Source of the DNA: Escherichia coli phage phiS
DNA: 64,000 bases
Direction: 5' to 3' (one strand)
Sequence record: PP449093.1
Shown: positions 2,076 to 33,912 of the stretch, in pieces
Layout: the number at the start of each line of letters is the position of its first letter
Position numbering within the stretch: the first letter of the stretch is position 1
Notes under the pieces: model-generated
Databases searched by the model: none
Seen by the model: the letters and a program-made list of their open reading frames with translations, nothing else
What the model was told of the DNA's origin: nothing
Translations under genes and position numbers: made by a program

Positions 2076-2603
2076 ATGAAATCATTAAACCGTAAGCGTA
2101 AAGCACAACGACACAAAGAACGAGCTAAAAAGATTGCTATTGAACTGGTTGAGCGTGAGGATAGCTATTTGTCTACGGGTCGTTTGTATACATTCCATGC
2201 ATTGATTGATGGTAAGCCAGTGTTGCATAATCATGATTGTTTGGCACTCTTTCACGAAATCAAACCAATTCATCGTGAATGGGATGACAACAAAGCAAAA
2301 GGTCAATATTTCCTTACTTGTTCGTGTGGTCATGCTGGATGTGCTGGATATTGGGAACCTGTTACTATCCGTGAGAAAAATGATACCATTCAATGGGTCG
2401 CCCGTACCCGCGATGGTTATGATAAAGGTGCTGATGGTACTGGAGATAACGTAGTTTACTTTAATCGTGATTGGTATTATATGGCGCGATGTATGATCCT
2501 GTTTTATCTTGACTCGATGCCGTATGAATATTTCAGTTTCCAGAATGGGACCGAACTGACAGGGAAGGAATGGTCTGACTACATTCGAAAAAATTTAAAA
2601 TAA
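2076..2603 (+). CDS. Hypothetical Cys/His-rich protein (175 aa)
   Basis: ATG at 2076 preceded by GAGGTG. Contains CSCGHAGCAG and a basic N-terminus. Confidence 0.55.
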   Translation: MKSLNRKRKAQRHKERAKKIAIELVEREDSYLSTGRLYTFHALIDGKPVLHNHDCLALFHEIKPIHREWDDNKAKGQYFLTCSCGHAGCAGYWEPVTIREKNDTIQWVARTRDGYDKGADGTGDNVVYFNRDWYYMARCMILFYLDSMPYEYFSFQNGTELTGKEWSDYIRKNLK

Positions 2604-2607
2604 ATGC

Positions 2608-2636
2608 TTGACGGGGATCGCGAGATCCCCTATACT
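2608..2636 (+). promoter_or_regulatory. Early promoter with stem-loop in the spacer (TTGACG ... TATACT)
   Basis: TTGACG, then the 17-nt spacer ggggatcgcgagatcccc forming a hairpin, then TATACT. Confidence 0.5.
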
Positions 2637-2678
2637 ATATTCATCAAGACGAGATACAACTTTACAGGAGAATCAAAT

Positions 2679-2831
2679 ATGTGGACTTTACTGATTTGGG
2701 AAACTGAAAACGCACAAGTAGAAATCCGTGAATACGAATACCTAAGCCCAGCTTATCTATTAGCATCTCGCGGTGGTTACTATAAAGCGCAGATTGTAAA
2801 CGAGTTCGGGGTAATTGAATATGAGTTCTGA
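2679..2831 (+). CDS. Hypothetical small protein (50 aa)
   Basis: ATG at 2679 after RBS AGGAG. It overlaps the nrdG start. Confidence 0.35.
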   Translation: MWTLLIWETENAQVEIREYEYLSPAYLLASRGGYYKAQIVNEFGVIEYEF

Positions 2832-3324
2832 TACATACGGCAAACTACGCTATGCCGATATTAAAGATTGTGATATGGTTAACGGTGAGGGAGTGAGAGT
2901 CTCCCTTTACGTTACCGGATGTTCACACGCATGTGATGGTTGCTTTAATGCTAGCCTACTCAATCCTAAGAACGGGGAACCATTCACCGATGATACAATG
3001 GGATTGATTCTGGATCTGCTTAGACCTGATTTTATTCAGGGGCTAACATTCTTAGGTGGCGATCCACTGTATAAACGCAATTTAAAGGGTGTACAGCGGA
3101 TCATCGATGAAGTAAAATCATGGATGCCAAATAAAGATATTTGGCTATGGTCTGGTTATACCCTTGACCAATTGAATGATGAGCAAAGAAAAATTGTAGA
3201 ATCAGTTGACATGTTCATCGATGGGCGTTATATTAAAGATATGCCAACGAAGAAGCCGTGGCGGGGGTCTGACAATCAAGTACAATACAAGATTGTTAAT
3301 AGTATTCCAGTGAAAATTATTTGA
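2815..3324 (+). CDS. nrdG: Anaerobic ribonucleotide reductase activating protein NrdG (radical SAM)
   Basis: CxxxCxxC cluster GCSHACDGC, then KDIWLWSGY and IDGRYIKDMPTKKPWRGSDNQ, matching T4 NrdG as I recall it. Adjacent to nrdD. Confidence 0.85.
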   Translation: MNMSSDTYGKLRYADIKDCDMVNGEGVRVSLYVTGCSHACDGCFNASLLNPKNGEPFTDDTMGLILDLLRPDFIQGLTFLGGDPLYKRNLKGVQRIIDEVKSWMPNKDIWLWSGYTLDQLNDEQRKIVESVDMFIDGRYIKDMPTKKPWRGSDNQVQYKIVNSIPVKII

Positions 3325-4340: not shown

Positions 4341-5165
4341 ATGAAATGGGAAATTGGTAAAACTTACACCTGGAAAGACGAAAACGCTAAAACTGAGTTT
4401 ATTACTAACGGAGAAGGTGTTCTTTCTCCACTTAACAGCGATATTAGTGCAGCTATTGGTGACACGCCATTTACCATCATCGAGATCGATGGCAACGGTT
4501 GGATTAATGCAATAGAGCTAGACGGTGTTTATCATACGGCGAAAACTGCTACAGGAAAAGACATTTGGACTGCAACATATTTCTTTAGTCCATTCGATAG
4601 AAAATTCTTTCGTGAAGTTGAAGAAGTTCCCCAGAAATGGGAAGTTGGTAAAACTTATACTTGGAAAGATGCGAATGCTATGACCGACTTCTGTCATTAT
4701 GCTGAAAACGTATCTAATCTTAATTATGTTATTGCACGAGCAATAAATTATAGACCTTTTACTGTTAAAAATGTTAGTCCATGTGGGCAAATTGATGTAA
4801 TTGAAATTGATGGTAAAGACCATACTCTAATGAGCGCAACCGAAGATAGAGACCATAAAGGAACTAGCTGGTTTATTGATTCTGATAGAAAATTCTTTCG
4901 TGAAGTAGAAGAATTGGAAGTTATAACCACTGATTCTAAAATCGTTGGACAGTTGAAACGTCTGTTTAGTAGTCGTTACGGCCTGACAATGGTTAAATTT
5001 GGCGAAGCAAATGAAGGTAAAACCTTTGAACGTTTCGATGACTTCATTACAGCACTTGACAAGATGGATGAAATCATGCAAGATCGCCAGAAGATTAAAG
5101 ACCTTCAAGAAGACATTAAACGTCGTGAAGTTGAATTTTTGATTGGTAAAGAGCGAGGTTGGTAA
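4341..5165 (+). CDS. Paralog family member 3, carrying two tandem copies of the domain
   Basis: MKWEIGKTYTWKD...FDRKFFREVEEV, then a second copy KWEVGKTYTWKD...SDRKFFREVEEL. Confidence 0.7.
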   Translation: MKWEIGKTYTWKDENAKTEFITNGEGVLSPLNSDISAAIGDTPFTIIEIDGNGWINAIELDGVYHTAKTATGKDIWTATYFFSPFDRKFFREVEEVPQKWEVGKTYTWKDANAMTDFCHYAENVSNLNYVIARAINYRPFTVKNVSPCGQIDVIEIDGKDHTLMSATEDRDHKGTSWFIDSDRKFFREVEELEVITTDSKIVGQLKRLFSSRYGLTMVKFGEANEGKTFERFDDFITALDKMDEIMQDRQKIKDLQEDIKRREVEFLIGKERGW

Positions 5166-5166
5166 T

Positions 5167-5664
5167 ATGTTTGTTGATGGTAATATGTTTGTTGTTGGTA
5201 TGACCTATCAGTGGAAAAACGAGCGAGCGCGGAAAGCCTTTGCAACCAGTGTTGCAAATGATGCAATAGCAGACTTTATCGGTGACCGTACATTTAAAGT
5301 TATCGCTTTTGAAAAAATTGCGTCAGATATCGAATATGTTTCTGCGATTGAAATTGATGGAAAAACATACACCTGTCGAGATGTTGATGATGTACGGGAA
5401 TACGCGCACAACTGGTTTTTGCAATCCGAAGAACGTTATTTTAAAGTGGTGTCGTCAGAACTGACTACTGATGCAATGTTGGAACAATTTTTCAACAACT
5501 ACGAAGTTTCTGTACGTCGCTATGGCGAAGAAGAAGTGTTTAAAATCGATGATTACAATCAGTTTAAACGAGTATTCGCCACTAAGTTACAGCGTGATTT
5601 TGAACGCGAGAATCGAATCAAGGAACTGGAAGAAGAACTAGAAAGATTAAAGGCTGAGAAATGA
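5167..5664 (+). CDS. Paralog family member 4 (divergent)
   Basis: MFVDGNMFVVGMTYQWKNE...NWFLQSEERYFKVV with a coiled-coil tail. The gene starts with an 18-nt near-tandem duplication. Confidence 0.6.
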   Translation: MFVDGNMFVVGMTYQWKNERARKAFATSVANDAIADFIGDRTFKVIAFEKIASDIEYVSAIEIDGKTYTCRDVDDVREYAHNWFLQSEERYFKVVSSELTTDAMLEQFFNNYEVSVRRYGEEEVFKIDDYNQFKRVFATKLQRDFERENRIKELEEELERLKAEK

Positions 5665-9026: not shown

Positions 9027-9581
9027 ATGACAAAATTTAAGTATTGGGATGAAGAACTACAGAGTGAAATAAGGGATCATTTTGCCCATGACGAGAACGG
9101 CATACTCTATCACAAAACTCATAGTATTCATAAGGGTAAATTTGCACCTGGCGATATTGTCAAAACTCATGTAGGGTCACAAAGAGGACATTTATCTATT
9201 TGGTTATATCTAGGAAATGGTGTAAAATATAAATTGTATGTGCATAGGGTTGTTTGGTTTCTTGAGCATGGGTATCAGGTTGCTATAATCGACCATATAG
9301 ACCAAAATGTATTAAACAATGCACCAAGAAATTTAAGAGAAGCCACTAACCAAGAAAATAAAAGAAATCAGGGAAAGATCAAGAATGTAGGCGGAAGATA
9401 TAAGGGCGCATATCGTGCAAGTTCAGCTATGAAGTCTAAACCGTGGATATGTAAAGTCAGAATAGATGGGAAAACAAAACATTTTGGATATTTCGCGACA
9501 GAAGAAGAAGCGGCAAGAAAATATGATGAGGTGGCTAAGACTCTGTATGGAGAGTTTGCCGTTTTAAATTTTCCAGAATAA
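9027..9581 (+). CDS. HNH homing endonuclease with C-terminal AP2 DNA-binding domain (copy A)
   Basis: HNH core HRVVWFLEHGY...IDHIDQN...NLREAT..EN, then AP2-like GKTKHFGYFATEEEAARKYDEVAKTLYGEFAVLNF. It sits where T4 has alpha-gt. Confidence 0.8.
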   Translation: MTKFKYWDEELQSEIRDHFAHDENGILYHKTHSIHKGKFAPGDIVKTHVGSQRGHLSIWLYLGNGVKYKLYVHRVVWFLEHGYQVAIIDHIDQNVLNNAPRNLREATNQENKRNQGKIKNVGGRYKGAYRASSAMKSKPWICKVRIDGKTKHFGYFATEEEAARKYDEVAKTLYGEFAVLNFPE

Positions 9582-25970: not shown

Positions 25971-26534
25971 GTGAGGGTAAGGAAAGCCAAAGAATGGAGA
26001 GATGAATTAAAGGATGAAATACGTCGAAGATATAGACACGAAAGGGGTATATTGATTCATAAAACAAACAGCAAAGCAAGCCGAACGACGAAAGAAGGCC
26101 AGTTTTATAAGGTTGGTGATATAGTAAAGGTATCTAAAGTCACAGCCGGACACCTAAAAGTCTCATTTTCTTTTGAAGGAAAACAATATTTTGAGCTTGT
26201 GCATAGAATAGTATTCTTCTTAGAGCATGGGTATTGCCCACCTGTCATTGACCATATTGACGGGAATCCAGAAAACAACGATCCTCCAAACTTAAGAGAG
26301 GCGACACAAAAACAGAATACCCAAAATATGAGAAGAAATAACCAAACTAAAACTAGCAATTTTAAAGGAGTGCATTATAATAGTCGTTCGGGTAAATGGG
26401 TCGCCCAGATAAGGGACAATGAAGGAAATAAAGTCTATATAGGACAATTTGACCTAGAAATAGACGCCGCAATAGTATATAATGACTATGCGTATAAGTA
26501 TCACGGTGAATTTGCAGTGTTTAATGTTATTTGA
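25971..26534 (+). CDS. HNH homing endonuclease with AP2 domain (copy B)
   Basis: VHRIVFFLEHGY...IDHIDGNPENN...NLREAT, then AP2-like KGVHYN...GKWVAQI...YIGQFDLEIDAAIVYNDYAYKYHGEFA. GTG start. Confidence 0.8.
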   Translation: MRVRKAKEWRDELKDEIRRRYRHERGILIHKTNSKASRTTKEGQFYKVGDIVKVSKVTAGHLKVSFSFEGKQYFELVHRIVFFLEHGYCPPVIDHIDGNPENNDPPNLREATQKQNTQNMRRNNQTKTSNFKGVHYNSRSGKWVAQIRDNEGNKVYIGQFDLEIDAAIVYNDYAYKYHGEFAVFNVI

Positions 26535-31251: not shown

Positions 31252-31425
31252 ATGCCATTATACGATTATTCTTGTGAAGAACACGGTCAATTTCAGAAAA
31301 TCCGCAAAATTTCCGAGCGTGAAAAGGCAGAATGCCCTGAATGCGGTAAAGAATGCAAACAGGGATTGACTGCCCCGCGCGGGATTAATGGCGGGTACTA
31401 TGATAAAAATGTGCGCGTGTCATGA
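31252..31425 (+). CDS. Zinc-ribbon protein (57 aa)
   Basis: CEEHG ... CPECGKEC, two CxxC pairs (FmdB-like). Confidence 0.5.
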   Translation: MPLYDYSCEEHGQFQKIRKISEREKAECPECGKECKQGLTAPRGINGGYYDKNVRVS

Positions 31426-31531
31426 GTCATATACTTGACAATCACTCAATTTTTAATATGATTGTTGCAGCCGTCTTTGTGGCGGTTGCAGTAAGTTATG
31501 GTTATGTTATGAGCAAAATTAAGGTTTAGCT

Positions 31532-32071
31532 ATGGGCGATTTGGAATTATATGAATATCTCCACGAAAGATACTACTACGAAAACGGTAGGCTATTTTTC
31601 AAAAAGGATTTAAAGAATCAGATTAAAGCTGGCGATGAAGCCGGAAACCAATTGACAAAATATGCCGAGGATGGCAGTATCATGTGGAGTCGATGGGTCA
31701 TGAAGGTCAACCGAAAACATTTTTATCGGGCGACCGTTATATGGGTGATGTTTAACAAACAATTACCGCCTAAAGGTTTTGAGGTCGACCATATTGACAG
31801 AAACTCATTAAATGATAAAATAGAAAACCTTCGATTGGTGACTCGAACCAACAACGTAAGAAACCGAGGGAAGATGAGAAAGAATCCTTCGTCAAAATAT
31901 ATTGGCGTTTGTTGGAACAAGTCACATAAGAAATGGGTTGCTAGGATAGGTGGTTATAAGCGCGTATACTTAGGATCATTTAAAGACGAAAAAGAGGCTG
32001 CATTGGCCTATGATAAAGCCGTTAAAGAACTTCATGGAGAATTTGCGGTTTTAAATTTCCCAAATGACTGA
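31532..32071 (+). CDS. HNH homing endonuclease with AP2 domain (copy C)
   Basis: VDHIDRNSLNDKIENLRLVTRTNN, then AP2-like YIGVCWNKSHKKWVARIGG...YLGSFKDEKEAALAYDKAVKELHGEFAVLNF. Confidence 0.8.
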   Translation: MGDLELYEYLHERYYYENGRLFFKKDLKNQIKAGDEAGNQLTKYAEDGSIMWSRWVMKVNRKHFYRATVIWVMFNKQLPPKGFEVDHIDRNSLNDKIENLRLVTRTNNVRNRGKMRKNPSSKYIGVCWNKSHKKWVARIGGYKRVYLGSFKDEKEAALAYDKAVKELHGEFAVLNFPND

Positions 32072-32088
32072 TAAATGAGGAAAATATT

Positions 32089-33912
32089 ATGACAGATTTT
32101 TTGATCCTTTCAGATAGGGAACATGTGATTCGCAGACCTCATATGTACGTGGGGAGCACAACGTATGAGGCTCAAAAACGCTTTTTGTTTGGTAAATGGC
32201 AGTCTGTATCATACGTTCCCGGACTAGTTAAAATCATTGATGAGATCATCGACAACTCTGTAGACGAGGCGATTCGCACTAATTTTGAATTTGCCAATGT
32301 GATTAGCGTCGATATCCAAAACAATATTGTTACGGTAACAGACAACGGTCGCGGTATTCCTCAACATATGGTTACTACACCAGAGGGCACGCAGATTCCG
32401 CAACCTGTAGCCGCATGGACACGAACAAAAGCAGGGTCTAACTTTGATGATACCAATCGATTAACGCAAGGGATGAACGGTGTTGGGTCGTCGTTGTCAA
32501 ATTTCTTTAGCGATTGGTTTACTGGTGTGACCTGTGACGGTGAAACAGAAATGACCGTTCAATGCACAAACGGTGCTGAAAATATCACATGGTCATCAAA
32601 ACCATCAAAATTGAAGGGAACGAAGGTTACATTTTGTCCAGACTTCGACCACTTCGAAGGTTATATGATGGACAACTCTGTTTTAGATATTGTTCATGAT
32701 CGTCTGCAATCATTGAGCGTAATCTTTCCTAAGATCACGTTTAAGTTTAATGGTAAACGTATTGTTAGTAAGTTCAAGGATTATGCTAAACTATACAATG
32801 ATGATCCGTTTGTCATTGAAGATAAAAACTTCTCACTTGCCCTAGTTCCTGCGGTCGAGGGAGAAGGTTTTAAATCAGTATCCTTTGCTAATGGTCTGTT
32901 TACCAAAAACGGGGGAACACACGTAGACTACGTGACAGATGATCTTTGTGAAGAGATTGTAAAACGAATCAAGAAAGAATATAAGGTTGATGTTACTAAA
33001 GCTGCGGTTAAGTCTGGATTGACCTGTATTCTTATTGTTCGTGAATTGCCAAACCTCCGTTTTGATTCACAGACAAAAGAACGATTGACTAATCCAACTG
33101 GTGATATCAAGCGTCATATTGATCTTGATTTTAAAAAGCTGGCTAAAGTCATTGCGAAGAAAGAAAACATTATCATGCCTATTATTGCTGTAGTCCTGGC
33201 ACGCAAAGAGGCAGCAGATAAAGCGGCAGCGACTAAGGCAGCAAAGGCAGCAAAACGGGCTAAGGTAGCAAAACACGTTAAAGCTAACCTTATTGGAACT
33301 GACGCAGAAACTACCCTGTTTTTGACGGAAGGTGATTCCGCGATCAACTATCTGATCTCTGTACGTGATCAAGATTTACATGGAGGTTTCCCGTTGCGAG
33401 GCAAAACTCTTACAACGTGGGAACAACCGGAGGCAAAGATCGTTAAGAACGCCGAAATTTTTAACATCATGGCGATCACTGGCTTGCAATTTGGTGTTGA
33501 TGCATTGGAAGTTATGCAATACAAAAATATTGCGATTATGACCGACGCTGATACTGACGGGATCGGGTCTATTAAACCTAGTCTGATCTCTTTCTTTGCA
33601 CGTTGGCCTGAATTGTTCGAAGATGGACGAATCCGGTTTATCAAAACACCTATTATCATTGCTGAACCAAAGAAAGGTGATGATGTTCGATGGTATTATG
33701 ACCTAGAAGAGTTCGAGAACGACCGAGATAATATCAAAGGTTACAACATTCGATATATCAAAGGTTTAGCATCGCTCACAGAATCAGACTATCATCGCGT
33801 GATCAACGATCCTGTCATGGAGATCATCACGTTACCGGAAAACTATAAAGAGCTATTCGATTTGCTCTATAGTGAAGATGCAGATCAGCGCAAAATTTGG
33901 ATGCAATCATAA
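32089..33912 (+). CDS. 39: DNA topoisomerase II large subunit (GyrB-like), 39 and 60 fused in one ORF
   Basis: GHKL ATPase motifs (IDNSVDE, DNGRGIP, GMNGVGSS) and a C-terminal toprim region (TEGDSA, IMTDADTDG) in one 607-aa frame. Confidence 0.9.
   Translation: MTDFLILSDREHVIRRPHMYVGSTTYEAQKRFLFGKWQSVSYVPGLVKIIDEIIDNSVDEAIRTNFEFANVISVDIQNNIVTVTDNGRGIPQHMVTTPEGTQIPQPVAAWTRTKAGSNFDDTNRLTQGMNGVGSSLSNFFSDWFTGVTCDGETEMTVQCTNGAENITWSSKPSKLKGTKVTFCPDFDHFEGYMMDNSVLDIVHDRLQSLSVIFPKITFKFNGKRIVSKFKDYAKLYNDDPFVIEDKNFSLALVPAVEGEGFKSVSFANGLFTKNGGTHVDYVTDDLCEEIVKRIKKEYKVDVTKAAVKSGLTCILIVRELPNLRFDSQTKERLTNPTGDIKRHIDLDFKKLAKVIAKKENIIMPIIAVVLARKEAADKAAATKAAKAAKRAKVAKHVKANLIGTDAETTLFLTEGDSAINYLISVRDQDLHGGFPLRGKTLTTWEQPEAKIVKNAEIFNIMAITGLQFGVDALEVMQYKNIAIMTDADTDGIGSIKPSLISFFARWPELFEDGRIRFIKTPIIIAEPKKGDDVRWYYDLEEFENDRDNIKGYNIRYIKGLASLTESDYHRVINDPVMEIITLPENYKELFDLLYSEDADQRKIWMQS

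Follow-up and report, generated by a model that had tools for sequence, protein, structure and literature searches.

A free-standing HNH-AP2 endonuclease gene upstream of topoisomerase gene 39 in Escherichia coli phage phiS: a horizontally spread cassette with the features of intronless homing

The HNH-AP2 gene and its surroundings

The window analysed here is a stretch of 64,000 nt from Escherichia coli phage phiS (PP449093.1), and positions refer to it unless another record is named. Its plus strand carries at 31532..32071 an intact ORF of 179 amino acids, which starts with ATG, has an AAGG Shine-Dalgarno sequence 7 nt 5′ of the start codon and ends 17 nt upstream of the start codon of gene 39 (Table 1). 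A sequence-only reading of this DNA had placed an HNH-AP2 ORF directly upstream of gene 39; the coordinates, the domains and the 17-nt spacing all agree with this description. We refer to this ORF as copy C, and to two further ORFs of the same type in the window as copies A and B. Gene 39 (32089..33912) encodes the large subunit of topoisomerase II and has the same length as its RB49 counterpart, 1824 nt. The earlier description of gene 39 as intact holds as well: it is a single, unsplit ORF of 607 amino acids that covers both the gp39 and the gp60 parts, with a match of its product to phrog_543 (E 1e-251) and of residues 443–606 to the gp60-like phrog_7229 in the PHROGs database. The gene order, dda, dexA, the zinc-ribbon gene 39.2, a hydrophobic ORF of 35 amino acids, the HNH gene and gene 39, with rIIA farther on, follows the RB49-like arrangement.

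Pfam profiles assign residues 69–110 of copy C to HNH_3 (PF13392; 48 bits against a cut-off of 24.8) and residues 121–169 to AP2 (44.8 bits against a cut-off of 33.3), and the best PHROGs assignment is phrog_99, 'HNH endonuclease' (E 1e-50). Residues D86, H87, N99, N108 and N111 show no variation in two alignments, of 17 and 26 homologues. Copy C thus has the arrangement by which His-Me finger nucleases are recognised, namely a general-base histidine preceded by aspartate, together with structural or metal-binding asparagines. The nuclease domain is predicted to adopt the beta-beta-alpha-metal fold, and the C-terminal domain combines the AP2 profile match with a predicted three-stranded sheet packed on a helix. 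The protein consists of an I-HmuI-like N-terminal sheet, a His-Me finger nuclease and a C-terminal AP2 DNA-binding domain, and it is presumably catalytically active. A terminase-associated HNH protein was considered and ruled out, as the gene lies in the early replication-gene cluster, away from the terminase genes.

Sequence searches set copy C apart from other members of its class. In a set of 5.8 billion proteins it had a single close cluster, at 98% identity; outside this cluster the best matches reached at most 57% identity in partial alignments and at most 43% over most of the length. Relatives outside Krischvirus in IMG/VR were at most 52% identical, barring one 28-residue fragment at 64%, and among 50,697 phage records tblastn found nothing above ~40% identity to the protein. 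Copy A (9027–9581, 184 aa) lies upstream of gene 47, and copy B (25971–26534, 187 aa, GTG start) is flanked by the primase gene 61 and the dCTPase gene 56. Each resembles copy C only in the C-terminal ~95–109 residues of the latter, with 47% and 35% identity, respectively, and the N-terminal 84 residues of copy C had no BLAST match in either. Copies A and B and an HNH_3+AP2 gene of phage W115 (see below) are mutually 41–49% identical over their full lengths. Copy C had been regarded as a third paralog; two more HNH_3+AP2 ORFs are indeed present in the window, but they resemble it in the C-terminal part only and, to judge by these alignments, are distant family members rather than recent duplicates. 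The free-standing AP2-HNH class reportedly goes back to Magnani et al. in 2004. By sequence comparison, copy C is a separate lineage within this known class of homing endonucleases, at a site that is vacant in the 58 Krischvirus isolates searched.

The sequence to the left of copy C is strongly conserved. Of the 58 isolates, 57 match the segment 31426–31512 at 100% identity, and the remaining one matches it at 95% or more. The segment includes TTGACA-16-TATGAT at 31435–31462, an 11/12 match to a sigma-70-like promoter, and a hairpin at 31457–31500 (−21 kcal/mol, z −5.4), which was equalled in stability by none of 200 shuffled sequences. The promoter-like site probably drives transcription of both copy C and gene 39. 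The 87-nt block falls within the annotated 35-aa ORF RB49p006.1, which may be a regulatory RNA or promoter element rather than, or besides, a gene. A search for a promoter belonging to copy C itself gave 12 promoter-like sites, against 12.1 expected from shuffled sequences. RNA folding at the start codons of copy C and gene 39 was unremarkable (z +0.9 and +0.2, respectively), and when terminators or regulatory hairpins were sought at these two starts, the hairpin in the conserved left flank was the sole standout. Another promoter-like sequence, TTGACA-16-TAAAAT with an upstream TG (11/12), lies inside copy C at 31794–31821, ~270 nt before gene 39. It is a consensus match, of a kind not enriched over shuffles in this region, and recalls T4 cassettes with a built-in promoter for the gene that they displace downstream.

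Table 1. Features of the gene 39 locus in the window and of nuclease genes adjoining gene 39 in related phages
Feature	Position	Strand	Basis or remark
Small hydrophobic ORF of 35 aa, homologue of RB49p006.1	31422..31529	+	Annotated in RB49 and called in carrier contigs; last 5 codons replaced by the insertion
87-nt left flank with promoter-like site and hairpin	31426..31512	+	Conservation, promoter scan, folding
Left end of cassette: new 5-codon tail and stop of the small ORF, AAGG ribosome-binding site of the HNH gene	31513..31531	+	Comparison with RB49; same junction in all carrier contigs
Copy C, free-standing HNH_3 + AP2 endonuclease gene	31532..32071	+	179 aa; stop codon within the coordinates
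Spacer with new GAGG ribosome-binding site for gene 39	32072..32088	+	Unlike the RB49 leader; conserved in all carriers
Donor-type 5′ end of gene 39 (co-conversion or immunity tract)	32089..32220	+	Divergence from RB49; linkage to the HNH gene
Rest of gene 39, RB49/ELT4 type, fused 39+60	32221..33912	+	Profile matches; comparison with RB49 and carriers
Endonuclease_7-type gene of MIZ4	L044 (Escherichia phage MIZ4, OR167180.1) 2423-3256; window equivalent 31512/31513		In the annotation, a fusion of 277 aa that includes the small ORF
HNH_3+AP2 gene downstream of gene 39	L002 (W115) 4351-4914; L003 (JSE) 4925-5488; L016 8383-8946; window equivalent just after 33912		

A cassette including the 5′ end of gene 39 and its distribution

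We compared the locus with the 58 records of Krischvirus (RB49-like, Straboviridae) in a phage collection (INPHARED, August 2025). A 4-kb region matched all of them at 90–99.3% identity, ELT4 being the closest (99.3%). The copy C gene was absent in 58 of 58, each of which had a precise empty site. RB49 is identical to the window through 31512 and unrelated from 31513 on, with similarity resuming within gene 39; the sequence from 31513 to the start of gene 39 had no match in any of the 58 isolates. The difference extends into the topoisomerase gene. Its first 120 nt have 50 mismatches to RB49 (58% identity), leading to 14 amino-acid changes in 40 codons, whereas the other 1704 nt have 36 mismatches and are ~98% identical. 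Donor alleles reach nt 132 of the gene, and RB49-type alleles are found from nt 135. The unit that distinguishes the window phage from its HNH-less relatives is thus a cassette of ~700 nt, from 31513 to ~32220, in which the tail of the small ORF is followed by the HNH gene and by the first ~120–132 nt of gene 39.

We searched for a donor of the gene 39 tract. When the first 52 amino acids were used in tblastn, the best match over the full query among the matches listed was a Krischvirus allele at 73% identity; two further records, beyond the matches listed, were scored at 80–90% identity. A blastn search of the 156-nt donor-type tract against the 50,697 phage records returned no match. Scanning for an exact 44-nt piece of the tract gave 0 matches in IMG/VR and one among metagenome contigs, a genome-length contig that is itself a carrier. 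Neither a donor nor an HNH-less genome with the donor-type tract was found in these collections.

Dozens of metagenomic Krischvirus contigs carry copy C at precisely this position. The exact protein is indexed in 35 blocks of an assembly collection, from which 23 contigs were read, and the variant at 98% identity was read on 15 more, giving 38 contigs. In all 20 of the matches listed, the contig is Krischvirus-like and copy C has the small ORF on one side and gene 39 on the other. The junction and the donor-type first ~130 nt of gene 39 are shared by 21 of 21 carrier loci read, the tract being absent in 58/58 isolates, so that in the ~80 genomes and contigs examined the linkage of copy C to the diverged 5′ allele is perfect. 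Loss of the gene from the isolates by simple deletion was rejected, because it would not restore the RB49-type 5′ end of gene 39 and because the cassette is younger than its flanks.

The donor tract has different right-hand ends in different carriers. We mapped it with the 277 sites that differ between RB49 and L008, the most divergent carrier. It ends at ~nt 132 of gene 39 in the window and in ten similar contigs and reaches ~nt 745 in L004; the truncated L005 retains at least ~700 nt of it, and in L008–L010 it spans the whole of gene 39. A comparison of L004 with L008 gave 1 difference in the 696 nt of the cassette, 4 in 600 at nt 121–720 of gene 39 and 126 in 1104 beyond. For L008 itself (ena:ERZ27268015 k141_18954), dexA was called as two ORFs of 127 and 94 aa at 756–1425, pointing to a frameshift or an assembly error; the contig represents a Krischvirus-like lineage with a gene 39 that is only ~87% identical to that of any isolate.

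The cassette is far more uniform than the genomes in which it resides. Between backbones with as many as 149 differences in 1547 nt of flanking sequence (up to 10%), it differs at 1–10 of 696 nt, with a Fisher p of 1e-7 to 1e-16 in 4 of 5 pairs. For the window, the p value was 9e-16 against L008, 5e-10 against L015 and 2e-7 against L017; that against L004 was 0.07 and not significant. A neighbour-joining tree built from 1.96 kb of the flanks shows backbones with and without the gene intermixed: the window lies nearest to the HNH-less ELT4 (0.41%), and L015 pairs with SSG23, L018 with Sf20 and L021 with RB49. These results show that the cassette spread horizontally and is younger than its genomic backgrounds.

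Probable intronless homing and its alternatives

Copy C displays three traits of a homing gene: it is present or absent at one homologous site, its co-conversion tract has variable ends, and it has moved horizontally. The nested tracts, the uniform cassette and the interspersion of carriers form, at the level of comparative genomics, the signature of intronless homing with co-conversion, and free-standing endonucleases associated with co-conversion are textbook biology of T4. We therefore consider it likely that copy C belongs to the free-standing homing endonuclease genes of the HNH-AP2 class and spreads in this manner. T4 free-standing homing endonuclease genes have been described as promoter-less cassettes with co-conversion, among them those of MobA and MobE, which nick their targets (PMC2988022), and the match of the copy C signatures to that description supports the homing interpretation. 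The signatures also agree with the report that nuclease genes mark boundaries of recombination and genetic exchange between phages (PMC10448857). An Endonuclease_7-type gene at the same junction in MIZ4, with a foreign gene 39 tract of its own, offers an independent parallel.

In the proposed mechanism, copy C, with no evident promoter of its own, would be transcribed from the early-type promoter in the 87-nt left flank, within the gene 39 message, much like the promoter-less seg and mob cassettes of T4 (PMC2988022). Upon mixed infection with a Krischvirus that lacks the gene, the enzyme would recognise an RB49-type sequence at the 5′ end of gene 39 or slightly within it, and nick or cut that allele there. 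T4-type recombination-dependent replication would then repair the break with the carrier genome as the template, installing the HNH gene together with the adjoining donor-type 5′ end of gene 39, which would shield the carrier from its own enzyme. The tract ends at ~132 and ~745 nt would be the points where single repair or recombination events were resolved. Since no carrier has less than the first ~130 nt of gene 39 in donor form, together with the new leader, the target is most economically placed between ~12 nt upstream of the gene 39 start and nt 135 in the naive genome. Carriers are presumably resistant, because their 5′ end differs at 50 of the first 120 positions and is perfectly linked to the HNH gene.

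Several observations count against homing. T4-like phages recombine very often, and mosaicism and interspersion could arise from this with no drive by a nuclease. Copy C is missing from all of the 58 cultured isolates, which is unexpected for a strong driver at high frequency. The contrast between cassette and flanks was not significant for the window against L004 (p 0.07), and the collections searched yielded no donor of the highly divergent first 120 nt. The common end at ~130 nt may reflect one ancestral event rather than many independent homings. Given that the shared ~132-nt end may go back to one event and that T4-type recombination can by itself shuffle flanks, what the data show is horizontal spread of the cassette, not nuclease drive; that the spread was driven by the nuclease of copy C itself, rather than being passive, we infer from the sequence patterns.

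The same observations bear on an account in which the nuclease gene is passive or decaying: it would have entered once from a diverged relative by illegitimate or homeologous recombination and then been shuffled by T4-type recombination without cleavage of its own. The tract end at ~nt 132 that is common to most carriers fits such a single origin followed by ordinary recombination in near-identical flanks, and so does the lack of copy C from all 58 isolates. A passive gene is, however, hard to reconcile with an ORF that is intact on dozens of contigs from many samples, with at most 6 differences in 540 nt, and with the invariance of the catalytic D-H…N…N residues. The cassette is also far less diverged than its flanks, pointing to recent spread that outpaced the divergence of the backbone, and a second, unrelated nuclease gene behaves alike at the same junction (see below). 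We consider this account unlikely.

Somewhat less probable still is that copy C is not primarily selfish and serves as a weapon of competition or exclusion, cutting the essential topoisomerase gene of co-infecting relatives to the advantage of the carrier (marker exclusion), or as a regulator whose AP2 domain would bind near the start of gene 39 and modulate its expression. Its location directly before an essential replication gene, inside the transcription unit of the latter, is compatible with both roles; AP2 is, by family, a bona fide sequence-specific DNA-binding domain, and the cleavage step is common to homing and interference competition. The sequence signatures expected of a weapon are the same as those of homing, and the data do not separate the two. 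A purely regulatory role is improbable, given the full conservation of the nuclease residues and the fact that most relatives do without the gene.

The sequence-only reading had further proposed that copy C may drive the split/unsplit polymorphism of the 39/60 topoisomerase in T4-like phages, a proposal that rests on analogy with T4 mobA, is contradicted by the present data and has next to no probability. T4 mobA does lie between genes 39 and 60, as the reading stated and as is seen in the T4 annotation, and it targets gene 39 (PMC2988022). Between copy C and T4 MobA, on the other hand, no similarity is detectable in sequence: when the T4 60.1-mobA region was searched with copy C by tblastn, a chance match of 7 residues (E 5.6) was the sole result, and the HNH motif of MobA, HHILPRSMGGSDDNENLV (HHILPRSMGG…NLV), has a pattern unlike that of copy C. 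Nor is copy C inserted within the topoisomerase gene at the 39/60 boundary; the position of the T4 split corresponds to residue ~443 of the 607-aa protein, ~1.3 kb downstream of copy C, which occupies the 5′ flank. Gene 39 is a fused gene of 1824 nt in every Krischvirus examined, whether the HNH gene is present or absent. The polymorphism that is linked to copy C consists of the presence or absence of the nuclease gene and the mosaic 5′ end of gene 39.

Known nucleases and other nuclease genes of Krischviruses

Among known systems, copy C is closest to the AP2-HNH homing endonuclease genes, which have been recognised as such in RB49 and RB43 (RB49ORF040c and RB43ORF027c; PMC1524935) and to which the 'IPA-HNH' genes of ICP1 are related (PMC10448857). 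It shares with them the order of HNH_3 followed by a C-terminal AP2 domain, occurrence in the same phage genus, a free-standing, intergenic position and a patchy distribution among close relatives. It differs in that it is at most 47% identical to the other HNH-AP2 genes of Krischvirus, and this in the C-terminal half only, and in that it occupies the 5′ flank of gene 39, which is empty in the 58 isolates.

The T4 enzymes SegF, SegG and MobE offer parallels in behaviour. Each is encoded by a promoter-less cassette between genes of a conserved operon, as is copy C, whose target would likewise be in the essential gene next to it. Further points of likeness are co-conversion tracts that are asymmetric and vary in length, and a carrier allele that is diverged and presumably resistant. 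In contrast to copy C, SegF and SegG belong to the GIY-YIG enzymes, and MobE, although an HNH enzyme, lacks AP2; moreover, their cleavage sites and exclusion have been measured, whereas those of copy C are deduced from population genomics only. T4 MobA, with the gene 60 bypass cassette, resembles copy C as a free-standing nuclease of the HNH superfamily tied to the gene for the large topoisomerase subunit, the target of copy C being a presumed one. MobA sits inside that gene, splitting 39 and 60, whereas copy C lies outside the 5′ end of a gene that is whole. I-HmuI, the HNH nicking endonuclease of Bacillus phage SPO1 (PDB 1U3E), differs from copy C in being intron-encoded and in having C-terminal helical and helix-turn-helix modules, copy C being free-standing with AP2.

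The general concepts are unchanged by these results. The locus provides a well-documented natural example of intronless homing, in the interpretation favoured here, in a T4-like genus outside T4, with a cassette of defined extent, donor tracts nested at three endpoints and an unambiguous allele of the empty site. It also leads to the testable prediction that an AP2-HNH enzyme cuts within the first ~130 nt of RB49-type gene 39. To our knowledge, no AP2-HNH phage nuclease with a mapped target has been described. A carrier paired with ELT4 or RB49, with flanks that are 99.3% identical, would make a convenient experimental system.

Other nuclease genes adjoin gene 39 in Krischviruses. In MIZ4 and MIZ5 a different gene, with a match to Pfam Endonuclease_7 (E 6.5e-16), is inserted directly after the nucleotide that also precedes the copy C cassette. 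Gene 39 of MIZ4 has a foreign tract of its own, from nt 1 to ~681, which is 20–50% diverged and is followed by near identity to RB49. The junction common to the copy C and MIZ4 insertions, GTTATGGTTATGTTATG, is a short TTATG repeat. At the other end, W115, JSE and L016 have another HNH_3+AP2 gene, encoding 187 aa, directly downstream of gene 39. This gene is absent in the window and is linked to distinctive alleles in the last ~40 nt of gene 39; in L016, nuclease genes flank gene 39 on both sides. The earlier designation of the gene 39 region as a nuclease hotspot in T4 thus extends to Krischvirus, where several nuclease genes are found at both ends of the gene; copy C itself has no tie to the T4 split.

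The topoisomerase gene is accordingly a probable recurrent nuclease target in Krischviruses, approached from both ends and by different families, and this would account for local mosaicism that could otherwise mislead the comparative genomics and taxonomy of therapeutic E. coli phages. The junction 5′ of gene 39 could even be a shared landing pad, at which unrelated nucleases swap, each with a private diverged module for the topoisomerase N-terminus, in an arms race that selects recoded 'immunity' versions. Under this extension, to which we give a small chance, the divergence of ~43% in the first 120 nt, against ~10% in the rest of the same donor gene, would reflect more than import from a distant donor.

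Copies A and B are both polymorphic for presence or absence among the isolates. Copy B is found at ~99% identity in 7 records from 6 distinct phages (G2494, AV108, TB34, SAP, KFS-EC and ELT3) and is absent in ~50; its flanks are ~88% identical in most HNH-less genomes and 98.5% identical in a few (MIZ2, MIZ3 and MIZ6). Copy A as such is found in no isolate; the HNH gene annotated at that site in RB49, MIZ4 and JK32 is a different one, and the flanks are only 91–95% identical to the window. The pattern suggests that the copy A site is another co-conversion mosaic.
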